Below, piece after piece: positions 4,742 to 64,000 of a stretch of DNA of 64,000 nucleotides (the stretch's first letter is position 1; each line of letters begins with the position of its first letter). The DNA is taken from NCBI GenBank assembly GCA_040954595.2, contig CM082581.2, positions 13,217,921-13,281,920 of the forward strand, given 5' to 3'. The notes under the pieces were generated by a model. It searched no databases and was not told the origin of the DNA. It was given only the letters and a program-made list of their open reading frames with translations. A program made the position numbers and the translations under genes. This DNA is from Balanoglossus misakiensis (taxonomy: Eukaryota; Animalia; Hemichordata).

Positions 4742-13837
<9,096 letters not shown>

Positions 13838-14492
13838 GCTGAAGGAATTCAAATGCAAACAGTTAAAACGAAACGACAACTTGTTTTCAAGCAATCGACG
13901 CCATGTTATTTTGGTCACGTGACATTTCTTCGGGGTCAGAGTGCACGAGGGCACGCCCCATCGCTTCGCTGAAAGACACCTGTTGCATCTACTTGTTTCC
14001 AAACCTTATCTTTAATTTCATAAAGCCCGTGATGGAAGACTTGGATTTTCATTGTTTCAAGATTAATTCTTCCATTCCCTACAGTATTTTTTTGTAAATG
14101 ACATTACGCCTAATAACATGAAGAAAGACGAACAGAATAAAAGATGCGCTCTCAGTCTCACTGTTGGTGCGGAGAACAGTGGATGTTCCCATTTGCTATG
14201 AATGTAGGGATAAATCAACGGTATACAACTGTCAGCTGATGCGTCAGCTATTTCAAGAAGTATCAGGGCAGCAGTTGACGGCAAATTCACGTGATATCCA
14301 GCAGGTGGCCCTGTCTCACATTTGGCAGGTGCAGTTTGTTGAGGCGCGTCTCTGAACCAACCCTCTCTGAAAACATCTCCTACCAGAGGCCTTCAACTAG
14401 AAGTAGCTTAGGCCCAGAAGTGTAAGCGTTTGCAAGTCTTGGCCGGGTTATTCGCCGAAGATTAGTATTTGACAAAACAGACCAGAGTGACC

Positions 14493-16694
14493 ATGGCTGG
14501 CGCTTTCCCGAAAACAGAAACATCCGGAGAAATAGACGACGCCTTTCTTACTTGCGGGTTCTGTTCTGAACCGTACAGGGATCCAAAACTTCTTCCCTGT
14601 CTACACACTTTCTGTGCGGAGTGTTTAGCCGAGATAGCTGAGAATGCTGGAAACCTGACCTGTCCACTCTGCCAACGAGGGCACGAAGTTCCCGACGAAG
14701 GTGTTTCTGGTCTGGCATCTAATGATTTCATCGGCGGACTGGTCGCCAGCAGTCGTTACCAACCGACTGGACATTCGTCTGCTCCTCAACGCTGTGAGAC
14801 GTGTAACTCAGGTGACGTGACCAGAGTGTGTTCAGAGTGCTCGCTTGGACTGTGCGAATTTTGCGTGCGTGTGCATGCCCGGATTCCACTGACCCGATCT
14901 CACCGCCTGATGCCACCTGACGAGTACAACCGTGCAAAGACGGAGAACCTCTCATTGGCACAGCCCCCACTCTACTGCACGAAACACCAGGTAAGCGAAA
15001 TCAAACTCTACTGCCAGACGTGTCAAATCTCGGTGTGTCCAGAATGTGCGCTTATCGATCACCAGGGCCACACCAACAGATATCTGAAGGAAGTGGCTGA
15101 TGAATTCTGTAAGGATTTGAGTGACATGATGAACGAACTGAAATTTAAACAAGAAGAAGCCGCCGAAACTCAGAAACGCTTGCAAGAATTAACAGCGGTT
15201 CTCCGAAAAAATATCAAGTCTGAAAATACCAAACTCATGGAACGCGCTGAGTTTGTCAGTGGTATGATACGGAAAAGTGCGCAAAATGTCAGGGCCGCCA
15301 TGAAAAAAGCATACCACAAGAAAAAGGCAAGCCTGGACACGTGTTTTAAAGAGTTGGAATGCATGACGAGTGACATACAAGGGGTGCGAGAATTTTCTGA
15401 AAAAATCATGCGCCACGGTTCGTCCGCGCAGCTCATGTCCGCAAAGATGGGAATGACGTCGCAAATCGGGGAGTTGCTGAAAACAGATATCCGTGAGATA
15501 TCTGAAGATGACGGCTTCATTAAGTTCCGACCAGCAGCAGATGTGCTTAAAGACTCCTGCATTGGGGAACTGGTTACACGCAAGCCTATTGGCTACCAGT
15601 TGGAATTTGTTCCAGAGTATGTGACAGTCCGCAAATCAGCACTGGTTACTCTGAAGGCAAAAGGTAACATGATGTCGTCTGCGGGAAAAGTGAGCGCTCT
15701 TGTTAAGAAACCGGACGGCACCGAAGAAGCGGTGAGTCCGAAGGTGACAGACGAAGAAATAGGAATACAGTCTTTGGAGTTTTTTCCAGTGATGGCAGGA
15801 AATCACCAAGCTTTCATATCCGTGGACGGTGACCCGATTGAAGAGTCGCCGATACTTATACCAGTGGTCTCTGAAAAAGGTCTTCTCTTCGATTTTGGGG
15901 GAAGGGGGACCGCTGAAGGCTTGTTGAATGAACCCTACGGTGTCACTCAACTGCCAGACGGCAGCGTGTTGGTCTGTGATTCTGCTAATCATCGTCTTCA
16001 GAGGTTCACTTTGACCGGCAAATTTCAAGGTCTGCTCCAGCTCCCTGCTCTCGAGAAGCCCGCAAAGCCAATGTACGTCGCGTCAGATGAGGAGAACATC
16101 TACATCACTGACATCGGCAACAACCATGTTATCGTCTGCGATGAAAATGGTCAAGTCGTCAAAACCATCGGGAAGGGGGATTTGAAATCTCCAGTCGGCA
16201 TCGCAGTGAGTCCGACAAATAGCAGGGTCTATGTCGTCGACAGTGATCATTTCTGTGTTAGGATTTACGACCGAGACGGGAAATTGCTATCATCCTTTGG
16301 AAATAAAAAGACCTTTGGGAAAAAGCCTTCTTGCATCTCCATAAGTGGTGAAGGAACTGTCTTCGTTTCTTGCCGCCACCACGCCGCTGTAAAAGTCTTC
16401 AGCTCGGATGGCAGGTTTCTCCACGACTTTGGGAAATTTGACGACGCGGAAGATTTGCATGTGGATAGCCACAATCACGTGTATGTATGTGATTACAAGA
16501 ATGGAAGGGTTAATAAATTCACTGCTGAAGGAAAGTCATCTTATCGCTTAATCGGTACATTTGACGGTTTTGAAAATCCGACAGGAGTCCATGTCACCAA
16601 AGATGAGCCGTACGGAAAGGTGATCGTTGTTGATTACATGGATGCACGTATCAAGGTGTTCGCTCAACAAGATAAAGTTGAAGGACAGGTATGA
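14493..16694 (+). CDS. TRIM-NHL E3 ubiquitin ligase (RING, two B-boxes, coiled coil, filamin/Ig, NHL repeats), TRIM2/3/71-like, single coding exon
   Basis: RING CGFC...LPCLHTFCAEC...CPLC; B-boxes C..C...C..C...C..C...H and CTKH...LYCQTC...CPECALIDH..H; coiled coil; filamin-like VKKPDG...G.H...SVDG.PI..SP; NHL repeats (P.GV, VCDSANHRLQRF, ITDIGNNHV). First ATG at 14493. Confidence 0.92.
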   Translation: MAGAFPKTETSGEIDDAFLTCGFCSEPYRDPKLLPCLHTFCAECLAEIAENAGNLTCPLCQRGHEVPDEGVSGLASNDFIGGLVASSRYQPTGHSSAPQRCETCNSGDVTRVCSECSLGLCEFCVRVHARIPLTRSHRLMPPDEYNRAKTENLSLAQPPLYCTKHQVSEIKLYCQTCQISVCPECALIDHQGHTNRYLKEVADEFCKDLSDMMNELKFKQEEAAETQKRLQELTAVLRKNIKSENTKLMERAEFVSGMIRKSAQNVRAAMKKAYHKKKASLDTCFKELECMTSDIQGVREFSEKIMRHGSSAQLMSAKMGMTSQIGELLKTDIREISEDDGFIKFRPAADVLKDSCIGELVTRKPIGYQLEFVPEYVTVRKSALVTLKAKGNMMSSAGKVSALVKKPDGTEEAVSPKVTDEEIGIQSLEFFPVMAGNHQAFISVDGDPIEESPILIPVVSEKGLLFDFGGRGTAEGLLNEPYGVTQLPDGSVLVCDSANHRLQRFTLTGKFQGLLQLPALEKPAKPMYVASDEENIYITDIGNNHVIVCDENGQVVKTIGKGDLKSPVGIAVSPTNSRVYVVDSDHFCVRIYDRDGKLLSSFGNKKTFGKKPSCISISGEGTVFVSCRHHAAVKVFSSDGRFLHDFGKFDDAEDLHVDSHNHVYVCDYKNGRVNKFTAEGKSSYRLIGTFDGFENPTGVHVTKDEPYGKVIVVDYMDARIKVFAQQDKVEGQV

Positions 16695-17711: not shown

Positions 17712-20700
17712 TTAGTCTTCCGTGACTTCCTTTTCTTCATTCTGTCTCTTGATGTCCTTGACCTTGGCCCACTGTCTTCGCTTCTCAAGTCTCTGTCCAC
17801 TCTTATCTGACGTGTACACAACGTCTTCGTTTTCTGATTCTCTGGAGATCTGCTGCCGGACGCTAATTCTCCGCTTCATACCTTGGTTACAAATAGGAAA
17901 AGGGTCATTACAAATCCAACTGTGACTGACAAATGTTGTGTAACGTTTGCAAATACTGACCAACATGGATAAACATTACCATAATATCATTTTATATACT
18001 GACGAAATGCCATACCTGGGTCAGCTCTCTGTAGTTTGTCCAATGCTGCTCTGCGAATGTCAGATTCACCAGACGTTCCTTGATGGGACGATTCACTCAC
18101 GTAGAATGCCGATTCCACAGCGCTGTCACCAGCAATTGAAGAAGTGTCTTCTGTGTACCAAATACAAAAACAGATATGCAAGGAATAACTTTCCTTAGTG
18201 CATGTACTTTCCTTGTTCTGTAAATGTGCAATTGAAAGAAGCAGCCTGCCTTTGTTTGATACCATTTCTGCAACCCGTTACCAGAATATTGAAACACTTA
18301 ATTTTACTTCTTTATTTCTACCTGTACTGCTGTCGTCGCCATCGTTTTCCCAGCTGTATTTCCATGGCAACCCCTCGGCGATGGCTTTCTGTCTGATCAT
18401 GAGTCGGACATACCGTCCCTTTGTACGCTCACTGTCCCTCTGTGAAGCTCTGCTGTTAAGCTTTGCCCATGGCCTTTTCTGGAGAGTGAAATTCAAAGTG
18501 TGAAAATGCAAAACACTTTCGGATAAGAAAAGAACCCTGGCCTTCTGGCATTTTCAAATGGCATTTCAATATATTAATTCAAACGAATGCAAATATATGC
18601 AGACCAACCTTTCTCATTTTTTCCATTTCTTCCTTGATTTCCTTGGCTGTCCTGTACTCTTCTCTGATTTCATCAATTTCTTTGAGGACTGACAAAATAA
18701 AAGACAATATCAATATTTTATTATTTAAATAGGCGTAAAGTTTGGTGAAAAATCTAGGACTATAGTGCAATACTTTGATAATATTTTCTAAATTTCGTTC
18801 TCACCTTTTGGATCTCTCATTTTCTGTCGGAGTGCCCGCAGCACAATGATGGAAACCCAACATGGCGTCCTGTCGTCATCGTCAACATTCTTGATAAAGC
18901 TCAGTGACACCGCACTTGTGTGCTGAATTAATCTCCTGTTGGTTTTAGGGTCACTGTGCATGGCGATGCGAACTTTGAACTCATTTATATCAAAGACCTG
19001 ACGGAGAAGTAACAGAAGTGAAAATCTTTTTGTCGTTTTATCGAATCATGATGCACAACTGAGTGTACGGCATATAGCAAAATGTCCAGGATTTAGTACA
19101 TGTGGAAAGGTCTCGCTGATAATAAAACTTACCCTGACCGGCCTTCTGTATGGAAGCAGCCCGCTATTTTTGATGATCTCGGCTGAAATAGAGTGATACT
19201 GTGGTTGTTTCCAACCTTTGACATAGATGCCGTTCTTACTGAGTCGACTGGCCCACACGTTGCCCTCCAGATCCATCTCAAGTTGCACTCCTTTCCCTAT
19301 GAAGCCGCGTATCCGCTTAGACTTCTCATCACTCTTGGCATCTGGCATCGATGAAAAGCCAACTCTGGAAGCAGTCACAAACGAACCAAGCAAAGAAATT
19401 ACTTTGAGTCAGGTGTTAGGATAATTGCATTGGCATTAAAAGTAATAGAACACAGTTTGTGCTCACGGGCATGTACAATTACCATTGCCACACTGAGAGT
19501 TGTGTCTTGCCTTACCTGCCACGCTGTTGCCTTGACGACCCATCAATCAGAAGAGTTGGGGAGGCAATGCTGAAGCCGTCAAGAGCATGGGATTTCTCCA
19601 TCAAATAGAGGCGACACCAGACACTTTTATCTAGTTCTGGAATCAAGCTCAGTGCATCTTTCAAGACAAACTGCGAATTTAAAAAGAAGTGCATGATTAT
19701 TACAAAACGAACAATTTCCATTAACTTCCTGTATGCTTTACAAAGTTTAATCAAATGCTGTAAACTTGGCAATACACGAGTCATACTAATACCACTATAT
19801 GAGGAAAACAAATTCAAGCTAAATTACTTTAAGTAGGCAAAGCAACTCAATAATCAAATGCATACCGATTGAATTTCACTTGGTGTAAATATCTCATTGT
19901 TATTGTCGGTCTCATCAATAACTGACGAAACTCGTTTAGTGACCGCAACGGTTGTTGCAGTTGCCAAGGCTACAGATCCAACTTCCGGTTTCCTTACTGG
20001 TCCTGGTGCCTTTGTCTTCTTTTCAGTCATCCCCTTTGCCACCAACATTCTCTGCAGCGCATCCGCCTGCATGCAAAACATCATTCGATTTAGAAGACAT
20101 TTGTACCGCAGAGGGAGCTGTTCCATCGACCTGGACATGGCAGCCATCTTGAATTTTCCATTACTGTCCACAACACAATGAACGCACAGATGAAAGTTTG
20201 TACCTACCTGTTGATGTCGTTTGGCATCATATTCATTCTGTGCTTTCACTCTCTCTGCAAAACTCTCTCCCAGTTGTTGAATTTGCAGCAGAAGACGCTG
20301 GTAGGCTGCAGTCTTGGCCCATGACTCCTGACGGAGGCGTCTCAGCGTCAGCTTTGCAAGAAATCCCCTCACGATACTCTGCACCGTGATTACTTTGGTC
20401 GCCATGGCGTCCATCATGGAGTCCAGCTGTTCAGTGTGCCAGTATTTCAAGAACACCTGAAGTACATTTACCGCATTAGAACTTTGTAGGGTGGAACTCT
20501 CGTCACTTTCTTTACACAAATGTCATTACAACTGTTTCACTGGGCAGCAGCACAGATCAATAAAACAAAGCAATGTCTGGACCACATCACAGAATTGTCC
20601 CACATTTGACGGTGCATATTTCGATCATGGACATACTTTACACGCGAACTGACTTACCTTTGTCTTTCCGACTTGCCAATTAGCAAGCCCTGTAGACTGC

Positions 20701-23700
20701 AACAGGTCATGACAATTCACAGAATTAAATTGGATTTGGGCAGACATTGGAAAACACAGAAATTTGTACCTGGAATTGAACAAATTTAACCCATCATATA
20801 ACATACATATATCAAGGAAGACAAGCACTGGTATATAATAAGCCCATTTTGGTATGATATTATTTTACTTGAATTTGGTTTGGTTTGGTCGAAATTCATC
20901 TGCGAAAGGATATCAGTGGACAGAAAGCCGCCGATGACTTTTGACCTACCTTTGGAGAAAGTCTTGGAATGGCAATCTCACTGAATATCCCATACGTCTT
21001 ATTCTGGTCGTCTCCAAGACACCAGTGTATCTGAGTTGATTCAAGACCATCTGGTCTTCAAATCTTCCAGGCTGTTTCTGATGATTTGGTTTGATGCAGC
21101 GGACAAACTGTGGCTGCGCTGTCAACATCTTTTCCATCAGGTCGGTCAGTGACTCCTGGTGTGGGAGGGGAGACAAGAAAGTCTATTACAGTAAATCGGA
21201 TCGCGTTTATGAAATGACTGGAAAACAGTCATTGACCCCCAACGGGGGGGGGGACTGCTAAGAAGGGGTTAATCAATCCATCCACCGAAAACTCACCTTG
21301 AAGTAGGCACCAACAGTTAACCCTTGCTGGTTATCTTCTTTTGGTCCACTGCTCAATCTGCGAAGACAAAACCATGGATATTCATTCCAGCAACACCATC
21401 TGTGAAAAGTTGCCTCTTCATAACAAACAATCATGGTGTGAATTTTATGAATCGCTCAATTAACATTTTCTAATATAAGAACAGTGATGTGTTTGCTTGC
21501 TTACCTGTGATTCTGTTGGTTGCTGGCTTTCAGATCAGGTTGCTGGGCACACAGCAATATGGCTCTCCTGTCTCTGGCTCGGCTGCTAGACCTGTTCAAA
21601 GCATAACACGCATGAAAATCATGATAGTAATCAGTCAAACAGGCAGAGACATAGAGCACATATGTCTCACACTTATTATCATGTTTAATATTGTGACTTG
21701 GCGAAGCGGTCGCTGTCCTTACCGTCTGTTCATTGATCCAGTTCTTGATAGTTTAGCTTTGAACAATTTACAGATCAAGGCATTCTGAGAATTCTTCATG
21801 CAATCAACAAGCGTCTTGTTCAGCGTGTCTCGGTTCTTTTCTAGGAACCCCACAGCATTGTACACAACCTGTAGGAAATACGAGTTCCATGAAATCACTG
21901 ACCCGTCAATCTGTATATACCTGTATTATGACTTCCTATACTTGAACATACATCAACCTAAAAGCGTAATGAACAATCCAATTTGTCAACATGATACCCT
22001 TAAAGAATATGATTCTTCCTAACACATTAACCCACCTGCCCAGCATAATGGTTGATGCCAAACAGAGCGCCTCTATTGATTCCAGAGGCTGCAACGTAGG
22101 CTGGATTTCGACCACACTTGTTGTTGAACTTGAGAACCAGAGTGTCATCCGTTGCTTGTGGAAATTTGCTTTCCTCATCCAGAAGAGATAGGATCCCAAC
22201 TGGCCTCTGAAACGAATCGCACAATTTTAACATATAATTTCAATGCGTTTGTCACAGTTTCCAGGCCTTAAAATTAGCATAATAACATCGCGTCTTTTGA
22301 CTACAAATTTCTCAATATGTAAATTGGTAGCCAGTTTGAATACTATTACAGGTCTGACACCTGGCAAGCCTTCTGCAGTTTGTTGTATGCAAAACGCAAA
22401 TTACATAACCCTCATAGTATTGTGGATCTTCAAAATCCATCGTGTGTGTTTTTAACTCATTACAGCATTTAGCCTCTGGGCAATACTTACAGCCATGAGT
22501 AATTCCAGCAAGTGTTTGTTGTTCGTGAACTTGATTTCTTTCATGGAGACGCCTTCCTGCGCATACTCAGCTTGTTCCCAGGCGAAGATGTTCTGGTTGA
22601 AGTAGTACTGGAGTTGTTCATTCGTCATGTTGATGCATAGCTGTTCAAAACTGTTGTGTTTGAAATTCTCAAACCCTGAGATGTCCAGAATGCCCAAACT
22701 GCTGCTTGGCCCACCACTGAAATAAACGATGGTACATATATTAGGCGGACTAGCCCAGTCAGTTTGTCGTTTTCTGAACACTCTGATGAAATATAGATAC
22801 ACTGAAAATGCTAGTTTTCATTTTCTTTTCAACCACCTGGTTGTCTAAAACTAATAATGTTGATTCAATACCTGTATTCATTGCCAGATGCAAGCATATC
22901 ATTCACTTGGCAGACTATCCACCCGAACAATCGGCCATACAGAGCCTTACACAGTGCATCTCTTCCATCATTGGCTTGGTCCACGGTTTTCAGCATCACT
23001 ATCTGCTCACCTCTTGTGTAAGTTGTGTTAGAAATGAGGGCAGCGGCAAGGTCAACCGGATCAATGCTTAAAAGGTTACTCACTACATAAATAAATAAAT
23101 AAATAATAATCATTAGTTTAGAATATGTTGAGATCATCAACAACGTCTGTTGTCTTTGGTAGATAACTGAAGAGAGATAATTGATGATTTAGCGAGAAAA
23201 CTTACCAACTTTAAGATAATATTCATCAGCAACGTAAGCGCTGTCAAATTCGTTATCAAGTTCAAATTCAATATCAGATACGTTCAAGATGGCTGCTATG
23301 ACTGACTGTATGGAGTGCACATCCTAGCAACAAAGGAGAAAGAAAAATAATGGTTGCCTACCGAAAATGTATGATTTAAAAAGGTTGGACTTAGTGAACA
23401 ACAAAATGTTGCCGTTCCGTTCTTTTCAGGGTGATTCATCCGTGGTTTTCATGCAGATATATCGATCATGCATATGACTTGTCCTGTGCAAACATTCAGA
23501 ACTTACATCGTGTGAAAATCCAACAGTGGACATCAATTGTCTCAGCTCGTCATACTTTGTCTGGCAAAAATTAAAATGGTCACCACTTGTGTACACTTCA
23601 TTCACTGAATGAGTGCCACTTAAGATTCTGAAAATTAGAAAATAATATCACCATGTAAGACAATTATCACCATAGCAACATAACAACAGCTTGAGCATTT

Positions 23701-25733
23701 GCATAGTCTTATTATAATGACATCAATTGTGAAAACAAAAGGAGTTTTAGGACTTTAAATTTTACCTGTGTTTGTCTGGTGATAAGAGATAATATTGCAA
23801 CAGTTCGTTTTCGGTCAGACCAGCAAACATGTAATAAAATATATGAAAGTTTCTCTCTCCCGGATTCTGGGATACCACTCTAGATTTCTCCAGTAAATAT
23901 TCTTCAATATTGGCTGAAAGAAGATAAAACTGGTCAATCAGACTGTCTAATGTATTGACCAAATTGACAATGCTCTTCTGGGAGCTGTTCCTTTGTAAAT
24001 CAGTGAGGTCACGTGTCCATCAAACTATCATTTACACACATTACAAGAAGGATAAATTTAATGCCGTGTCCTCACCTCCTATCACTTTTCCATCAGATGT
24101 AAATTTTAAATCCACGAATTTGCCAAACCGACTTGAGTTCTGATTCATCACAGTCTGAGCATTCCCAAATGCTTCTAATAGAGGATTCACCTGGACATGG
24201 AACAGATAAGTTATTGTTAATATACCATTTAGTATAACATTGCCATGGTTAGAGCTAGTTGCTACCTATATAGTCTTACCTGTAGAATTTTGTCTTGGAG
24301 ACCGCGCTGCTGAGAATGACAGTGGTTCATCACATGCTGAATGATCAGTTTAGTTGTCTCTGTTTTACCGGCTCCAGATTCTCCGCTGATGACGCAACAT
24401 TGATTGACCCCCGTGCGCTTCATCTGCTGGTATGCCTTGTCGGCCACGGCGAATATGTGTGGCCGCATGGATCGCCTGTACTTCAAATTAACATACTTGC
24501 TCGAGATCTTCCAAGAACAAAACAGATAATATTGACAGTCTTATTATTTGAACAATTTTATGCTCAGAATGAAACTCATCAACAATAGCAACAAGATGGA
24601 AGTTGTAATACACCAGGCAATTAACGCCGAAAATTGTATGCAACCAAAACATATTTCTTGTCACTATACGCCTATATATAGTGTGTTTGATTTATGACGG
24701 GAATGTGACCGAGTCAAATATCTTGGCTACCAGGCGAGTGACATTTTGAAATAAGTTCTGCCCGGTAACGTTCTCAAAATATGGTATGGTTTCTTTTCTG
24801 CTCTTCGCCTAAAGTGTTCTCGTGTATTACCTACTGACAATTTGACATCTGGAGACTGAAGTTGTTTTAAAGCGACTTAATTTCTTTTTCCGAGACTCGT
24901 TCTGGGTCTTTCACCCTTCCTTTTCTTAATCGTAATCAAAGCATCGCGTAATGACAGAAGACAGCGACTCTTTGGCGCTAGAAAAGTACACCATCATGCA
25001 CTTCGGCTTTGTTATATCCAGGGCTGTCAATGATACGAAAGCCCTCTCTGACCCAAGTTAATGGATTTTGTTTGCTATTCATACCTCGAAAGTATAAATT
25101 GGCAGAGCACGGCACGGGTTGACCGCCAGTAATATATCACCGATGTATGTCTGCAAGATAAAAAACACACACGCAGGATTGAAAACGAAATAAAATGCAA
25201 CAGAAACGAAACCGAATTCATGATACAAAATTCATGATACAAAAATGTAGTTCGACCCTCAATAGAAATGGCGATATATGAAGACCAATTTTCAAAGAGG
25301 TAGTCAACCAAAACATTTGGTGGAACGACAGATTTTCCTTTCTCTGTATCATAATGCAAATATCAAAGTCCATATTTAAAACGATAATCAATCTACTGGT
25401 GTGTTGAATGTGTGACCAACCTTAGCCGCCATGCATCATATTGATCATATGCTTTTTAAATTAAATACAACACTGTGTGTTTTACCATTTCGTTCACTTT
25501 CTGTACCCAAAGAAACTTGCCACAATCCGCAAGTGATACTTATATTTACTGAAACGACGAAAAAGCGGAACTTAAACCAAACGCCTATGAAATGATAGGA
25601 ATGTATTCTTGCAGAGTAGACCACTTACATAGATATGGTCTTTCTTAAACCTGGCCTTCAACTGTTCTAAGATTGTCTTCTCGTCCAGTACGCTCAGTGT
25701 GGCCAGATCGTCGATGAGCTTGCCGTCCGCCAT
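17712..25733 (-). CDS. Unconventional myosin (class III-related motor, no kinase) with IQ motif and C-terminal SMAD MH2-like domain
   Basis: ATG 25733 ([18 protein letters not shown]). Motor motifs: [12 protein letters not shown]-loop [77 protein letters not shown] motif [11 protein letters not shown]. Then MH2-like exons and a charged tail; stop at 17712-17714. Confidence 0.92.
18805..19630 (-). other. MH2 (SMAD/DWB)-like domain encoded by three exons of the myosin gene
   Basis: [10 protein letters not shown]...SPTLLIDGS...[12 protein letters not shown]....[15 protein letters not shown]...VFDINEF...SLSFIK....TPCWVSI parallels SMAD WCSIAYYE...SLTVDGF...RRHIGRGVRL...GEVFAECLSDSAIFV...IFNNQEF...RMSFVK...TPCWIEL. 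Confidence 0.88.
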
Positions 25734-28700
25734 AATCGCTCTTCCCTTCCTTGGTTAATACTCTCCGTTAAACCACTCCCCCTTTACTCCCTTCTGTTGA
25801 GTAGAAAATACATCAATCTTGTCAGAGTTAAGTAAATAATGCATATGAAAATATCGGGTTGGTCACTGCGGTGATACGTACCCAACGTTTGAATTCAATA
25901 CGGGTCCCCCAACTGGTTTGGTACAGTAAGTCACGAATCTATGATCAACTAGGCCATTTAGTGCCAGTCAACATCAAAACTTCGCCAGTATCGTGTGTAA
26001 GCGTGTCTGGTCTCACATTGGCAGTGGTGCAAGGCTCGCGGGCATGGCTCAGTAACCCCTACACATACTTAAAAATCAGTTTGATGCCGGCGCCATGGAG
26101 CTCGTGTCTGTACTGACGTTTTTCAGAGATTCGCGGAAGTTAAAGTCTGTCGTCTGAAACCCCACCAACGAAAGTCCTCTGAATGTAAAACGCCAAAGTC
26201 AACATTTACCATTCACACATTTTAACTGGTAAGAATTGAATCTCAAGAGATGTCCCTATAAAAATATGCAAGTTATGAGACGTCGACACACAAGGGGGTC
26301 TGCGCATGGAAGTACGAGACCCTGGGAAGATATGTATTGTTTTAGTCTTTTGTTAGATTGTAATTAAAACGGCATAATGCAAATGATGGCAGAATAATAA
26401 GCTATTTATCGTTGATATTTAAATGGTTAGCCATTGTTATGCAATGTTACCTATCATTGGGAGTGGTCGCCTCCGGGATCAACAGTTAGCGAATATGAGT
26501 CATCGTTCCGGGGTCATCGTCGGGATGGTGGCAACTGAACCTGCCGGTAGCCACAAAATTCTGCGTATTTTTTGTGTGGACACACTTCAAATTCTAGTAC
26601 ATCGGTGCACAATTAGCGTCTGTTGGCCATAATTGCAGTACCACATGTACACACACCTAAGCTTATACCTTCAAAACCAGGATTATTCCAGAAGTCTTAT
26701 GGACACGTGATGCTCAGTGTTATGGGGGGAATTAGAGAAGGGCCACACGAGACGGTCGTTGCCGATATAGAGAATAAACAAACTATAAAAATGTCAAGAA
26801 ATCCATACTTTATATTCGAGTATTTTTATTGCGATACATAATTCTACGATAATCGGAGCGCCTAGCCACACGCACGCTGCAGTGCAATCGTGGGATGGCT
26901 GAAGCTACACAGAGACTCGGTGGAAACAACCTGTTGATCAGGCCAGGCCCGCTCCGCGCGCGTATACGCATCTCGTCTTTGAGGTTGGCGATAACTTGTC
27001 CACCCATAAGCTTACTTCTCTGTCTGGTATATGATAGAACCTATGCTGTAGTGTTTACGGGCATTGTGTGACGAAAGGCCAGCCGTGTTTGAAGGCATAG
27101 TTTGGTGTCTACTTACTGGTAACCAAAAACCATGAGCCTTTTAGTGTGTCCTTTTCCAGTCCACCACTTTGTAAGATTTGTGACACAATGCCGTTTGACT
27201 GAAAAGAACTATACACTTGCCTCTGGGCCTTTAGTGTTAAATGCTAGTATCCTTGCCAGAAAAATACACATTTAAGTCCTAATTAAAATGAGTCTGTTAC
27301 GACATTTGGAAGCTTTTGGTCATATTTAAAGTCCTACAGACCACAATGGTATCCTCGGGATTGAAGTAAGCAACTGGTACTATGAACGTCGCGTCAATCT
27401 TCATCAGCAAACATTAAATGATTAACTCATTACATGTAATCCGGGTCAGACAAAACTATATATAACTGTAACAGATAACTCAGATACTGACCAAGATAAA
27501 ACTCACGTACTTTGCTGCTCAAATTATGCACTGTCTGGGGGATGGTACAGGTGACCTTCGTTTTGGTAAAAATTTACACGTAAGGCTGTTGTCGAATCCA
27601 CACACCGAGTTTGCTCGGTTAGAACGTGGACGTATCGATGTGACGTTAGTAGGAAACAGGTAGCAATGTAAGCATATATGTAAATAATGGACAATTGTTA
27701 TATTCGAGACGTTTTCAAACTGCTAATGGATACGTACCCGCTGCTTAAAATCGAAAGGTATCGTGTTTCCACAACTCTACTTCGTCTGATTTTCGGTCGT
27801 GCCAGGGCGTGATGTCGCTGTCGTCTCTCTTCTACCTCAACTGTTGGACGTGGTATATTACACGTAATATGCTCGTAGCTCAGGGACCAAACAAGGTGTG
27901 ATGACCTTCACGCTTTCACTTTAGTGAGGGGCCATTTCTTACTCCACGACTCCCTGGATAGGTCAACCCCAATCGCCGAACTTCTCTACTATTTTTTGTT
28001 TGCGATCTTTGCTCCGAAAACTCGGGGACACTGCGAAAGATCCGAACGCTGACTAGTTAACTGACTTCTGCGCGCATACCGTTAAACAAACGCTACAACC
28101 CGGAAACGGCTAAGTCCTGCTGAATAATAACGCGATATCGCCGTGAATTACTCGGAACTGTGTGACGTAACGACTAAACCGCCCGCTCACATACGCCTGA
28201 GTCCTGCTGTACTTGTACCATGACCGATACGGGGGTAGTACAATTCATCTGGGAGGTTACACAACGTTGATGAGGGAGGGCGCCCGCGATTTATGCACAG
28301 ACGCTTCTCTGTTTATGATATTCTTGGTGGTTTCTTGGCAACGCAACGATGAATCGTAGCAAAACCCTCAGACTCTGGAACTATTTCGGACAGTGTTCAA
28401 AATGTGGACATATCTATTTGCCATGATGATCATCGATGTGTTTTTGCTCTTAGGTATTACAACTTGGACCAAAAGAGCGACGTGATGACTCTGCATTGGA
28501 AGACAAGGTCGAAATAATTATTTTTCCGGGTTCAATGTTTCACTCTGGGTGAGCACAGCCCCTGAAAGAAAAGCGCGTCCGAGAAAACATACAAATGAGC
28601 GAGAAAAGCCCGACCATGACCCCCTATGCATGGTTTGGTAATTACAATTGACAATTCTTAGCCTTTGTGCCTCAATGGTGTCGAAAGCCAGAAAACTTGT

Positions 28701-28997: not shown

Positions 28998-29050
28998 GAT
29001 TGGCTGTTGGCGACAGACCCACCTGGTGACTGGGTCAGACGCTATAAAAA
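28998..29050 (+). promoter_or_regulatory. Core promoter (inverted CCAAT plus TATA box) of the FREM-like gene
   Basis: GATTGG at ~28998 and TATAAAAA at 29043-29050, about 125 nt upstream of the ATG at 29174. Confidence 0.55.
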
Positions 29051-29173: not shown

Positions 29174-32100
29174 ATGCGGCTGTTCTTCGCCCTATCTTCG
29201 TGCGTGCTTCTTCTTTTTTGTTCCAGCCCCGTCTTCGGTGCGTTTGGAGACGATATTTCCACCGACAATGCCGATAACCGGTTCTCTAACATGGGTCAGG
29301 TCTACAAGGAAGACTTCAACGTGACGATGGGCCAAGTCGACATTTCACTTGTCGTTCAAGACACTGCCGGCATACAGGAAATCTGGATTTTGGATTTTCA
29401 ACCCTTTAGGTTCATTCAGAACGCTTTGCCTGTAGATGAGACATCTGGTAAGATGGTTTAATTTGTTTATTCAAGTACAATAGAAGCAAACAAGTTAGAT
29501 TTTGAAAAGAACCATGACATTATGCATGCAGCCTTTTTATTTCACAATTTGCTAAATTTAGACGAGGATGAACAAATGTAGTCATAAAATGCCAGCACTC
29601 AAAATTTCTTGACAACCTAAACGCAGTGACCAAAATATATGCCTTTGAAAGAAAACGGCACTTATTTTCAAGTAAACTATTTCAGTGAGCAGTCCGTGCA
29701 AAGCTCGCGGATTGTTTGTCGTCCATTTTGATTTTTGACACGCTCACTACAAAACGGTCACCTTGGCAGGTGTATATCATCACAATGCATCCAGGCGGCC
29801 AGATTGGCCGAGAGCAGTTATTCGGAAAACTGGTACACGTGCATGTGAAATTCGCTGATCTCTTAATTATTTATCAGGTCTGCTGGACATGTCAAGAACC
29901 GGGGAATGTTCCAGCGTCTATGAAGATTCCACCTTTCCAACATTTCTGCAAGACGATTACTTCACCAGTAAGACTGCAGCAGAACTGACTAGCAAAAAAC
30001 TATTCACGTCATTCGAGAGAAATGATGTATTGGACGGTAAGTTTTAAAATCGGTAAAGAAACTAAAACGGTGAAATTCTAGTAGTTTGCTAACGTCGTAT
30101 CCTCGGAACAAATTTCAGAAACACGACTAGTGGAATTAGAAACTACGGTTCACTTGAAGTAAGACTATTTTCTCGTATTTCAACCTCCAGGCGACAACCG
30201 AAGAAACCACAAGGTAGTTTACAGTGGTGATTTGCAGACTTTCTTCGAGTGCAAAAAATCCGATGGCTTGACTTCGATCTGGGATGTGACAGCGGACACG
30301 GCCGACGAGATAGAATATCGCACCAAATTGTACGCCACCAATGTTCGACCAAAGGATACGGCAGATGCCGCAGCGGGAATCTCCTTCGTCCAATCACATA
30401 TAGAACTAATCTGGAGACTTTCTCGTACTGCTATTGGAAAGGTAAAATATATCTTCTGTAAAATACGATAACTTGTAAGAAATGTAATGAACGTACCAGC
30501 GTTGTCGCCACTTCTGGTTTAAATTTGCCGGTCACCGTACGTATGAAACATGGTGTGCTCTTGGAAACTGAAGATTCGTGTAGGGCGAGGCAGTTTTGAA
30601 ATCGCCCATCTTGATATAACATTTAAAACGTTTCCTTCACAGTTCATCATTAGTTCAACCGCCATCTTGCAACCTATCTTCGAGTTTGCCATCGTGGGCA
30701 CAGTATACGACGAAAATGACCAGCCGGTGCCAACACAAGCAAACTTGCATCTCAGGTGTGTGGAACTTTATATATTTAGAACTTTATTGTTAATTCCTAA
30801 CCAGGGCAAAGTTTACGTTTATAAACTTTCACCAAGAGTAAAGTTGGAGATTTCACATTTTAGTCGATTTGCAATGTGCGCACCGCATTGTATGCTCTCA
30901 AAACAAAATAGGATATAATCTGAATCTGATTGCTTTGTCAGGCGTGTTCACATAGATGTTGGACACGTGCGTGATTTCGTTAACTTTTCGTATCCATCCT
31001 TTACAATTGCTCAGGTTCACAACAGTGTTTGATTCGGACAGTGCGATGGTGGTCTACGTACAAGACAGCGTGGCCTACATCCCGGACAACACGAACCACG
31101 ACATCAACAAGACGGTGTTGGAACCCCCATCAACCCTGGTGGGAACGCCAGTTTGCTCTATTGAACTCGATGTAGGTACTGGGTCACAGTTGCAATGTAG
31201 ACAGGTAGGTAATGTATAATATCTTTTATTGAGTGTTCCATTAGCCTAGTCTTTTTCATTGGCATTAACCCAATCTCATTTCCCCCACAGACATTCGATT
31301 TCAAATTTGTCTTGGATATAGACACGTCCCTGGCGACCAACAGTGTGCCGGTCGACGCAAGCGGTGTCTTTGAATTCCTCTTCAACACGTATACCTGTGA
31401 GACTGTTAATAACCAAACTGTGGTCAGTTCGTGTCTACTGAACACGGGTCAAGACCCCATCAAGGTTGCCGCAGCCATCACTCTTCAAACGACAGTGTTG
31501 CTTGAAGATGCTGAAGACGACCAGATTACCATCACCCTGGTCTCTCTCAGAGGTATGTTTTTTTGCTCGTTGTTTTTCGGTGTTCTGACCAATCGAGGAA
31601 ACTGTCGCTTCCGTTGACCGATAAATGGTCCAAGTGTATGGTACAGGCTGGCGAGCACAGCCATGTACTAGAATCCCGAGATTCGGACAATTCAATTCGC
31701 CTGTGAAGCTCAGCTATACATTTTTGACGGAACTGCAAGTTCTCGCTGCTCACCTGACTTCCAAGCAGTGCTATATTTAGCAACGTTTTAATGATTTCTA
31801 ATCAAAAAGGAGTCAACAACGTCGAATTCAGTGTCCCGGGTAGCAGAGGAGTTTTGCACAAAGAAGAGGTGACATTGGAGGTGAAATTTTCGCCAGCTTT
31901 GTTGCGAGAGGACTTCACGCTGGAACTACTGCTCTTCATGGTGTGTAGAGGCGAGGAATTTGCCGGCGATGGACGCCCTGATGTAAGCATATCTAAGAAT
32001 GATAACCTCGTGATATTACTTCGTTTAGAGGAATAACCACGACCATGATCAAATTGGCCGGGATCATCAAATTGGCCAGGATCATCACGATCGCTGAAGC

Positions 32101-33167
32101 CTCATCAACCTTTAGAATTGAGCGGTCATGGACGTCAGATGATCAAACCCCATGCAATTTATGAAAAATATACAGACATTTTTTGCACATGTTGGCATTC
32201 CATTCAGGTTTGCTAGTTGCAAAGACATTCATTTGAAACATTTATATACCATCTTAGGTGAGCACTTGCATGCCCGAATTCCAGTGGTTATGTTTTCTCA
32301 CTAGTTCCACCTCCTTTTCTATTCATAGGGTTGCCTTGAAGCCCCTCTGCAAGACAGATACGTCGCTCACGTTAACGACGCCTTTCGACTGCCCAGCGCT
32401 TATGGAAACGACACCTACAATGGAACGCACTTGGAAAATGACTATACCCAAGCCCTGGAAAGTCACAATTACGTGCAATTATCAACCGATGGATCTTTAC
32501 TTGCTGGTAAGTCTACTAGCATTTTCTCCATACATGGGAGTGATACTGGTGAACAAGAACTGATAATTTCACCACTAGAAAACAATGCATCATTTAGTGA
32601 CATTCGGCCTTGATATTCCGACATTTCTTGACATGACATTTCAATTTGCTCAGAAGACTGAATTTTTCCGTCATTGCGTCAGTCTCACCTCGCTTTTCTT
32701 TAACTTTTCCAGTTCCAATCCACCAGTCCGTGTTCATAAACAGGGCCCTGTCTGGCGAGTCGAACACTTACACAATTACAACCGTGTACAGACTACAAAA
32801 CAAAATCAGAAGGAAGCGAAGCGCCGAGACGGAGGAGGAAGAAATCGTATCGGAAGACATCGTCCTCCATCACGCTGTCCAAGACAACAGAATCGTCCAC
32901 ACCCGCCGTGCTCGCGCCATTGACGACAGTATTGGAGATCACCACAACGAGATTTATGCCTTTCAGGCGGCTGGGTGTCCAAAAGACGCTATCCACGACC
33001 GCGACGATTTGGAATGCATCTGTCCGAAATGGACCTACCTGAATGAGGACTTGTATCAGTGTGAAGCGAGCGTTTTCAAAGAAGTTCCTGTTGGCAGTAG
33101 CGATGTTATTAGGTCTTCAGTTCTTTCAGTTTGCTTAGCAATTTTGATGTTCCTCTTGTTTGGGTAG
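29174..33167 (+). CDS. Secreted, membrane/GPI-anchored protein made of a stand-alone FRAS1/FREM2/ECM3-like C-terminal domain; about 9 exons
   Basis: Signal peptide MRLFFALSSCVLLLFCSSPVFG. In-frame GT-AG exons start near 29174, 29878, 30191, 30643, 31015, 31290, 31810, 32329 and 32713. RRKR furin site at 32808-32819, a small Cys-rich module (C..C.C..C), and a hydrophobic C-terminus VLSVCLAILMFLLFG*. The gene itself is well supported; the family assignment comes from motif recall. Confidence 0.8.
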
Positions 33168-34481
33168 ATCTTAGCCTAGCTTGTCACCAACTCGTAATTT
33201 ATAGCTAGGAAAGCCATTTTGTTGAATAATCATTCACAAATGTATAGAATTAATGTAATCTGTCTATATGTAAATGTGTATATTTATCAAATCTAATTAA
33301 AAAAATAATTATTTAAATTTGGTTACTACCGAGTTTTATTCAAAGCGGATAAAGACGAAGTCTTCAAATCCCTTACTTGTAACCTCGTACTTGTAACTTG
33401 CATCCTGCTATCCCGAGAGGAATGTCAAAATTCGATGTGTCGGGTAACGAAACGTAACGATGCTTGGAAATGATTGTACATTCAGTTCAGAATCCAATGA
33501 ATTTGACTGAAGTTGGCTTCTATGTAGACGTGTAAGGTTACGAAAATGTATATTGCGGATTATAAAACTCTTAATACTTTTGGAACACCTACCGCTGGCG
33601 TTGAGCTTTGCAAAGGCCTTCTTTCACCCTAAACGACCTGGTTAGGTTTAGTCCACTACGTATTGGCGTCTATCCTCTACTATATCAAAAATCTTCAGCA
33701 GTCCACATCGACCTTTGTTGGTGTATTCAGGGACTGGTCGGAAGTTTGAAAATTTAGAATTTCAGTCGGTATCAAAAGAAACAAGGCTCATCATTCATGT
33801 CAAACTTGTTAACCCAGTGAAGATATTGTGAAAAGCCATGCTCCTTTATAAAAATGGAATGATTTATTGAAAAAAATAGGTAGACTTTACAGACTTTTTT
33901 GCACAGAACATAAATGTCAACAGGTGAACATATGATTTCAGTTTGAGAGAGGAGGTGCAGAATACGTCTTCTACGTAATTTTCAACATTTAAAGGAATTA
34001 CACATCACATAATTGTAGGAGAGACTACTTGTCCCCGACTCTGTTGCCAGTTAGGAAAGGTGACACATTATTGTCTGTCAGTCTTTGTAAACAATCCTTG
34101 TTGTGGATTCTCGCACTTGAGCGGCACTTCTACAGAGCACTTTGTACTTTTTGTGTAGAAAACGAAGTCGAAAACACTGGTGGCTCAGCACAGTGGAGAA
34201 ACCAGTAATGGCAGTATCCCAATGAAGCTGGCTGAACTGTCTGGCCACGAATCGGTCAACAGCTACACACTGGTGGTCTTCCATGTATCTATCATTACAT
34301 CTTAAAGATGCCTAGTATTGTACACTGTCGACGACCATTTCAAGCCCAGTGTCCTATGTTGCATCAGGCATGCACTGTGATGCCTGCCAGACTTCCAATT
34401 TCAACTTTTGCAGCCATATCATCCCACACAGTTCATCCCTACTGTCAGTCTCAACATCAAATGCAGGGCACTATTCCCAGT

Positions 34482-36343
34482 TTATTCTGATGGCATTCCA
34501 AATAATTTGACGGTGCCCGCATCTCTGTTCTCGTATTTATCCTTATCATCGCACGCAAAGGCCAAGAGATTCCTCTTAGGGTGCCACGCCACGGTGAAGG
34601 TGGGTGACTCACACTGGACTTCTGTGATCTTCTCTCCTGTGGAGAATCAAATAGTAGTGGCAACCATCAGTAAATGTTTTGGATCAAATCAAGCCTTGGC
34701 CACATGGGATTACATTCATAAGCAGCTATAGACTTTACCATTGTGTTGTATATATAGGTGGCCTAACAGCACTCACATGCACACCATTAGTTTCTGACCT
34801 CAACCTCCTATGTTTTATTATGTCCCTAAATTATGCATGGAAAGCAGTGAGTGGGATCCATACCTGATTCAACTTCTGCTATATCAATGACAAGGTCTTC
34901 AGATGCTGAAGCTAACATTTTACCATCGTGACTGAAACTCAGTGTCCTCACAGGCCAATCAAGTCTGAAAAGAATGAAGAAAACCACGAGTTGAAACCAA
35001 CTGTAATACAGCAATGGGATTAATCCAAAACCCCGTACAAACATCAAATATAAGTACCAGTTTGCTGTCCACGTTCAATGCATGGCAGCTATTGGCCCAT
35101 GAGGAAAGACCTGAAATGTTTACAAACCTGGAAAAAGTTCTGACACAGACAAGTTCTTCCACATTCCAGAGACTGACCAAGGCATCTGCACTGCCGGTGG
35201 CAAAGTATTTCCCCGTCGGGTCGAACTCAATGCAGATGCAATTGGCTGGGTGTGCATTGAGAGTTTGCAGGGGCTTTAACTCAGGATAGCTGGAAGTGAA
35301 TAGAGTCACATTACATGTTATGAAGGAACCTACAAGCATGTACGCATGGAGGTGCTACTTGGGATTGGAGCGAGGGTCAACTTTCTACATTTGGTCTTCA
35401 CTGTCACCCAGTAAAGGTCAAGCAGACATTAACCAATCCCAAGTCATCCATTTTTGTCTTTTACCTGAGAATATTTATGCATCCATGTCCGTTGGTCAGG
35501 AAAAACAAATCATTGTCATTGTTCCATGATATTTCATTCACTTCGTATTTAAACTGTTCTTCTGCCCTGGCCTTGTGTGTCCTTGCATCAATGAAAGTGA
35601 CCAAGTCTTCTTTGTTTCCCACAGCTATAGTGTGTCCATCAGGACTCCAACATATGTTGATGTTTTCACCTGCCGAATACAATCAGAATGGGAATCTGTA
35701 CCACTGATTCCATAAATTTACGAAATGCATGTGTTTTGGATTACTCCTGTCTATGATCCAACTTCAATCTAACCGACCCACCTTTAGTGTTTACATTTGT
35801 TACACATTTATTGGACCTTGCATCCCATATTTTGATGCTTTTATCACCGGACGCCGTGACCAGAAGGTCTGGATTTGATGGATGCCAGCACAGCTGATCA
35901 ACACTGTCACCATGGCCACGATATACGTGGTCTCGTCCCTGTGAATGAAGGCAAACAAGATGCATCATTTGTATCATCAGTGATGCTTAGGATTTCAATC
36001 AGTTCAGACTATGGCAGGTATTACAATGTTTGTGGAAAGGTCACAGTGATTGCGTTAGAGAAAACAATGCTGCGATCTGTACTACCACGTTCTATTACAA
36101 TTTCTCCATTGACAACAGCATGTATATACAACTGCAAAGACATTAGCATCATCACTTTGCACATACCATTCTGTCTTTCTCCAGAACAAAAACACTGACG
36201 GTTTTATCAAAAGAACCTGATGCAAGTTTTCTGCCATCACAACTCCAGGCTACAGAATGGACTTTTGAGGAGTGGGCACGAAACTCTTCCGTGCGACCAA
36301 AACTCTGGAAATATTTCCGCATGTCTTCTGCGTACGTCGCCAT
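34482..36343 (-). CDS. THOC3: THO complex subunit 3 (TEX1), WD40 protein
   Basis: AHSSKVHSVAWSCDGRKLASGSFDKT, GHGDSVDQLCWHPSNPDL, GENINICWSPDG, AHPANCICIEFDPTGKYFATGSADALVSLW, LDWPVRTLSFSHDG, AGTVKLFGMPSE*. Confidence 0.95.
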
Positions 36344-51476: not shown

Positions 51477-52361
51477 CTAATGTTCCGTTGCCGTGGTAGC
51501 CGTTTGAAGCAGACTGCTAACGCTAAAGTTACAGCAGTTTGTGGTGGCGCCCGGCATTGAGTAATGACTACGGCCACTCACCGGGTACGTGTACGTCGTC
51601 GACGACGTCGTGCTTGATTCCCCATCGGCACACGGAGTTTTCACCATTTCCCTGTCGGTCTTCGCACTCGCTGTCGGCACAGAGTCGACTGTCGGGTTCG
51701 AAGAGACGGCAGCGGTACTGTTCGTGGATGTTGCTGCATTGTCGCGGCGTTTGCGCTTACGTCGGAAGTTACCGTTGTCGAACATCTTCTCGCAGTTCGG
51801 GTCCAGCATCCAGTAGTTGCCCTTGCCCGGGTCATCCTCACTTCTTGGTACTTTTTTGAAGCAGTCGTTCAGCGACAAATTGTGACGGATAGAGTTCTGC
51901 CACCCGGCTTTGCTCTTCTTGTAGAACGGGAAATTGTCCGACACGTATCTGTATATGCCGCTCAGGGTTATTTTCTTCTCTGGGGCGCCTTGTATCGCCA
52001 TGGCAATGAGTGCAGAATACGAATAAGGCGGTCGGACCAATTTAAAAAGTTCTTGCTGTGTTGGAATCGATAGCCACCCGAAGTCCGTCGGGCTGAAACT
52101 CGGCGCCGGCAGATAGTGACGTTGAGTCGGCGGCGGGGGTGGGGGACATGACGGTGGTGCGCTGTACGTCGGTGGCATATAGGTAGCATTGAAGGGATTG
52201 GCAGCGCTCAATGTTGAAGTGTTGAACCACATCGAAGCAGTTGGATAGCCCGGATTAGTATAATCCAACGCCGAAGGATTACCAATGTAGCTCGGTGGTG
52301 ATCGCGGTACGGTATGTTGATACATGATGTCACGGGTTGTGTCAGTCGCCTCCTGTGTCAT
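51477..52361 (-). CDS. foxI: Forkhead box protein I, single exon
   Basis: [29 protein letters not shown]...[59 protein letters not shown] is diagnostic of FoxI. C-terminal eh1-like FSVSSLL. Confidence 0.95.

Positions 52362-62507: not shown

Positions 62508-64000
<1,493 letters not shown>

Follow-up and report, generated by a model that had tools for sequence, protein, structure and literature searches.

Which protein does a nine-exon gene of the acorn worm Balanoglossus misakiensis encode, and to what is it related? The gene lies on the forward strand at 29174-33167 of a 64,000-nucleotide stretch (assembly GCA_040954595.2, contig CM082581.2, positions 13,217,921 to 13,281,920), here called the window as a whole. 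An original prediction, made from the letters alone, had seen in it a stand-alone protein resembling the C-terminal region of FRAS1/FREM proteins, with a layout like that of zona pellucida (ZP) proteins, and possibly an undescribed extracellular matrix family. We place the gene, as a new member, in a known egg-coat family; kinship of its N-terminal part with the tail of FREM2, the Fraser-syndrome protein, is likely. As the best overall explanation we give slightly better than even weight to an ARIS-like egg-coat protein, likely made by oocytes, cut by furin and assembling by ZP-style strand release.

Membership in the egg coat matrix protein family

A search with exon 3 retrieved 7 of 182 candidate proteins, three from hemichordates and four from echinoderms. 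Their clusters include BAJ41224.1 (Asterias amurensis), BAJ41227.1 (Apostichopus japonicus) and BAJ41230.1 (Patiria pectinifera), deposited as 'egg coat matrix protein' and 51%, 49% and 48% identical to the gene product, respectively, over about 660 amino acids (aa; E 0.0). Profile searching of 1.84 billion representatives gave 70 matches at E<=0.001, the named members of which come from echinoderms, hemichordates and amphioxus; beside them stand distant members and a single entry from EukProt. In a quick tree built from 34 full-length rows, with fragments and near-duplicates excluded, three paralogue groups emerged, each with amphioxus and ambulacrarian sequences, and the gene fell with BAJ41224/27/30 in a clade of 11 rows (Shimodaira-Hasegawa-like approximate likelihood ratio test, SH-aLRT, 98). 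Judged from these sequences, the family has three ancient types. Membership of the gene in this family is virtually certain: it shares with the echinoderm proteins the signal peptide, the cysteines, two furin sites, a Cys module, the hydrophobic tail and the clade, and differs in its hemichordate origin (nearest relative in P. flava, 79%). Because its one-to-one orthologues were deposited as egg coat matrix proteins, the idea of an undescribed family fails.

Naruse et al. reportedly described ARIS proteins and domains in 2011, and BAJ41224/27/30, as the third of each accession triplet, may be ARIS3, judged from accession order only. The two conserved halves of the family are named ARIS-N and ARIS-C. 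The gene has both with no insert between them (one site of insertion in paralogues is near aa 320 of the orthologue P0001), whereas the BAJ41228.1-type paralogue carries F5/8C and kringle inserts. In paralogues P0023 and P0028-P0033, F5/8C, kringle, fibrinogen C or SRCR domains are inserted near aa 320, and TSP1, C-type lectin or LamG domains near aa 514-528; both sites are fixed, and the module therefore serves as a display scaffold. P0053, P0059, P0072, P0099, P0066, P0076, P0083 and P0080 are distant family members, one of them from a EukProt transcriptome; a furin site is missing from most of these, and a transmembrane segment with a cytoplasmic tail is present in four. With them the range of the module may reach outside deuterostomes and possibly outside animals.

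The egg coat matrix accessions are likely the ARIS proteins, as PMC11361572 and PMC9759900 suggest. In the first of these, BAJ41225, 41226 and 41227 are ovary-enriched (log2 fold change 7.4-8.6; Table 2); the second finds higher levels of egg coat matrix proteins in starfish ovary and, for ARIS domains, cites Naruse et al. 2011 among others. ARIS triggers the acrosome reaction of starfish sperm, and the activity lies in its sugar chain, a sulfated pentasaccharide (PMC3528131; further ARIS biology in PMC9265791). By its sequence, the gene would quite probably have an egg-coat role in this acorn worm.

Gene model and sequence features

The nine exons, separated by introns that are all GT-AG, join to an open reading frame (ORF) of 684 aa with a single terminal stop. 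The P. flava protein XP_070539874.1 is identical at 520 of 662 aligned residues (79%) with 3 gap positions, and tblastn with homologues covers the gene's exons and gives no further significant match within the 64-kb window. At the sequence level, homologous proteins thus give the exon model independent support. On the transcript side, two RNA runs contained 0 reads of this organism, and two contig sets consisted of unspliced DNA. In the features below, exons rest on translation and homologue alignment, and the signal peptide on hydropathy and alignment.

29043..29048 (+): candidate TATA box TATAAA, 131 nucleotides 5' of the ATG, with a putative function read from sequence only
29174..29447 (+): exon 1, aa 1-91, with signal peptide
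29174..29242 (+): predicted signal peptide, about aa 1-23
29878..30036 (+): exon 2, aa 92-144
30191..30441 (+): exon 3, aa 145-228
30643..30755 (+): exon 4, aa 229-265
31015..31204 (+): exon 5, aa 266-329
31291..31552 (+): exon 6, aa 330-416
31810..31982 (+): exon 7, aa 417-474
32329..32506 (+): exon 8, aa 475-533
32713..33167 (+): exon 9, aa 534-684 plus stop
32808..32819 (+): furin-type site RRKR, aa 566-569, directly after the last strand of domain 3; conserved, cleavage putative
32904..32915 (+): second furin-type site RRAR, aa 598-601; motif conserved
32976..33062 (+): four-Cys module, aa 622-650; conserved, presumed EGF-like, without a Pfam match
33117..33164 (+): hydrophobic C-terminal tail without cytoplasmic residues, likely a glycosylphosphatidylinositol (GPI) signal
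33296..33301 (+): candidate polyadenylation signal ATTAAA

The signal peptide, RRKR, RRAR, Cys module and hydrophobic tail of the original prediction are all present in the translation, as are the motifs that it quoted for this gene (8 of 8, in its order). Family conservation begins directly after the predicted signal peptide. The Cys module has its cysteines at 622/635/637/650, and a final hydrophobic 15-mer ends the product, with no cytoplasmic tail after it. Pfam gave no match for the 9 exons and none at a useful E for 6 orthologues, and PDB sequence searches with two family profiles found no match.

A predicted ZP-C-like domain and its last strand

Structure models were predictions of the orthologue P0001, whose residue numbers differ from those of the gene product. 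The region of about 550 aa had been taken for a single beta-rich domain; beta-rich it is, but the model divides it into three beta-sandwich domains.

29300..30420 (+): domain 1, about aa 43-221, with a conserved Cys pair; beta-sandwich by prediction, ZP-N-like as a lead only
30667..31491 (+): domain 2, about aa 237-396, predicted immunoglobulin (Ig)-like beta-sandwich with two conserved Cys pairs
31528..32801 (+): domain 3, about aa 409-563, with one Cys pair; predicted to be an Ig sandwich resembling ZP-C
32943..32975 (+): post-furin strand, about aa 611-621, which in the model closes domain 3 as its final strand and resembles the external hydrophobic patch (EHP) of ZP proteins

Domain 2 bears most of the FREM2-like signal described below, and the F5/8C, kringle, fibrinogen and SRCR inserts of paralogues sit in it.

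Fold searching matched four different ZP proteins to domain 3, in alignments of 123-136 residues. Strand 624-634 of the P0001 model, which comes after RKRR/RRAR, aligns as the last strand, with aligned ranges ending at 633-636; in the predicted fold the post-furin strand very probably completes domain 3. The model thus presents the succession that characterizes a ZP module, namely a cleavage site, a hydrophobic strand that would complete ZP-C (the EHP) and an anchor. With ZP-module proteins (uromodulin, ZP2, betaglycan, endoglin) the gene product shares a predicted ZP-C-like last domain, a cleavage site before the final strand, a membrane anchor after it and the egg-coat context. It differs from them in having no detectable sequence similarity, no canonical ZP-C disulfides, two N-terminal beta domains unmatched to ZP-N and an EGF-like module after the EHP-like strand. 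The proposed ZP-like layout is supported for the last domain, in predicted fold and strand order. We lean towards descent of domain 3 from ZP-C.

ZP-C tied in Z score with unrelated Ig domains in the fold search. ZP-N chains were absent from the best 50 rows for domains 1-2, with domain 1 barely probed. None of 36 family members matched Pfam Zona_pellucida or ZP-N at E<=10, and the canonical ZP cysteines (Cys5-Cys7, Cys6-Cys8, CysA-CysB) are missing, domain 3 holding two cysteines 14 residues apart; PMC7456536, which gives the canonical set, reports losses too. These points, with the location of ARIS activity in the sugar chain (PMC3528131), would suit an ARIS-family egg-coat glycoprotein of ordinary tandem Ig-like domains, which furin only sheds, which carries glycans without ZP polymerisation and which matches ZP-C through nothing more than the shared Ig fold. 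A furin site before the last Ig strand would dismantle such a plain domain, yet it defines the ZP arrangement; the length of the four ZP alignments and the egg-coat role common to ZP proteins also speak against this alternative, which we consider unlikely. Foldseek with the whole model and with domains 1-2 returned low template-modelling-score generic matches only, and the end strands of domain 1 showed no Cys1-Cys4-type pair of ZP-N. One Atlas structure search result was disregarded, its underlying model having a predicted local distance difference test (pLDDT) value of 0.40.

The structural reading, a ZP-C-like last domain completed by a post-furin strand, matters most, the ARIS proteins having neither a Pfam family nor a solved relative in the searches above. 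Domain and EHP-like strand together offer a concrete assembly mechanism for ARIS proteins and would connect the egg coats of echinoderms, hemichordates and amphioxus with ZP biology. Full-text literature searching turned up no connection between ARIS (or egg coat matrix) proteins and either ZP domains or FRAS1/FREM2 in the covered portions of its sources (including PMC13361971, PMC3543715, PMC11670116, PMC12749355, PMC8390315 and PMC11843905); the primary ARIS protein papers (Naruse 2011, Hoshi 2012) and supplements lie outside this coverage, and a prior mention of FREM2 is possible. The module is apparently an unreported variant of the ZP design.

A probable relationship to FREM2

The gene product has no CSPG or Calx-beta repeats and is therefore not a member of the FRAS1/FREM (12-CSPG) family. 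Upstream exons with such repeats were looked for and none was found: the 126 upstream ORFs on both strands have no match to either, a minus-strand myosin occupies 21.7-25.8 kb, and orthologues begin at the same signal peptide, all of which agrees with the stand-alone protein originally proposed.

For comparison with FREM2, over domains 1-2 only, a DNA pattern was built from one FREM2 motif of the original prediction (the bait) and matched 13 metagenome loci. Three (L005, L008 and L012) contain a conserved spliced gene, whose exons join to 230, 209 and 341 residues, respectively; the remaining 10 were chance matches and served as controls. The vertebrate-type exons of the three hold five of the FREM2 motifs given in that prediction, in order, three of them letter for letter and one of the five being the bait. 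The loci are presumed to be FREM2. Pfam and literature searches (including PMC11843905) gave no name for them. Because they are close homologues, they count as one test. In L005 the exon at 4967-5074 appears to use a GC donor, whereas the matching introns of L008 and L012 have GT.

Standard scores did not reach significance. HMMER comparison of the family with the FREM2-like loci stayed at shuffle level, HHalign gave P 0.016 with a local score reached by 3 of 90 shuffles, and averaged-BLOSUM local alignment reached z about 3, a value that reversed sequences equalled in two of three loci, and the semi-global version gave nothing. The fourth method tried, end-to-end log-odds alignment, yielded z 2.6-4.7 against block-10 shuffles across 3 gap settings and 3 loci (reversed, -0.7 to 1.4), and the maximum among 39 unrelated proteins was z 1.66. 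For L012, 0 of 1000 shuffles reached the score; once the bait motif was masked, 1 of 1000 did, and the wrong profile region gave z -1.5. The signal of L012 came from the domain-2 part (z 3.7); the domain-1 part alone gave z 1.3, and a profile of 7 close orthologues z 1.2. In the traceback, four family cysteines lie on four FREM2-like cysteines, and four motif pairs fall in the register first proposed, the first pair being shifted.

On this sequence evidence homology to FREM2 is probable, and the claim keeps moderate support for domains 1-2. With the FREM2-like exons the gene shares a stretch of about 320 aa that is weakly but collinearly similar and keeps four cysteines in register; it differs in two unmatched domain-2 cysteines of the family and in intron positions, none of which is shared. 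Furin sites just before the anchor are common to the gene product and the membrane-proximal region of FREM2/FRAS1; for Fras1 and Frem2, PMC2855323 reports such sites and furin-dependent shedding. Apart from the missing repeats, the gene product is set off from FREM2, FRAS1 and sea-urchin ECM3 by its GPI-type tail, where they have a transmembrane domain.

A chance likeness between beta-rich proteins, which concerns the FREM2 link only, would fit the shuffle-level HMMER scores, the local z matched by reversed sequences, the low domain-1 and 7-sequence values, the success of a fourth scoring method and the fact that FRAS1/FREM2 was recognised neither among the 70 profile matches nor among 4092 long candidates, the latter being weak evidence. 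The end-to-end scores with their reversed, shuffled and unrelated controls and the cysteine register make chance rather improbable. If the link is true, several hundred residues that domain schemes leave blank in a human disease protein would gain a fold, furin processing would have a reason beyond shedding, and a small stand-alone model protein would be at hand for testing this. Action in a somatic matrix (epidermis, basement membrane) like FREM2/ECM3 instead of an egg coat is very improbable, since one-to-one orthologues deposited as egg coat matrix proteins are strongly ovary-enriched. In its favour stand the likely homology with FREM2-like exons and the TSP1, lectin and LamG inserts of paralogues, the latter pointing to broader functions.

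A proposed mechanism of assembly

For an egg-coat protein assembling by strand release, the oocyte would display a GPI-anchored precursor, with the post-furin strand acting like the ZP EHP and keeping the precursor unassembled. Furin would cut, and the capping strand would depart with the EGF-like module and anchor, freeing the ectodomain and opening a groove. A neighbour in the fibre, most likely a paralogous subunit, would fill it with one of its strands, possibly the conserved linker after domain 1. Subunits of the three paralogue types would form fibres bearing the sulfated glycans that trigger the acrosome reaction in starfish sperm. We place polymerisation by strand exchange somewhat below even.

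The same module would likely form the unannotated membrane-proximal part of FREM2. That ARIS proteins and the FREM2/FRAS1 tail are one hidden ZP-superfamily branch, a three-domain, cysteine-poor module polymerising once furin removes its own last strand, is doubtful. If true, one building principle would underlie both the egg jelly of starfish and acorn worms and the zona pellucida of mammals, and it would be through ZP-type filaments that the Fraser complex anchors skin.

Neighbouring genes in the window

Upstream on the minus strand, Myosin_head matches span 21.7-25.8 kb, and an MH2 (SMAD-type) match lies further 3' on that strand at 19049-19408; by sequence, the two at 19049-25754 (-) are probably one myosin-MH2 fusion gene. 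Downstream of and convergent with the egg-coat gene is a THOC3-like WD40 gene (about 34500-36000, -). A TRIM-NHL gene with RING, B-box, filamin and NHL domains is a single ORF at 14466-16694 (+), and a forkhead gene, presumably FoxI-like, is a single ORF at 51477-52361 (-). An exon of a Sel1-repeat protein lies at the window end (63045-63422, +).
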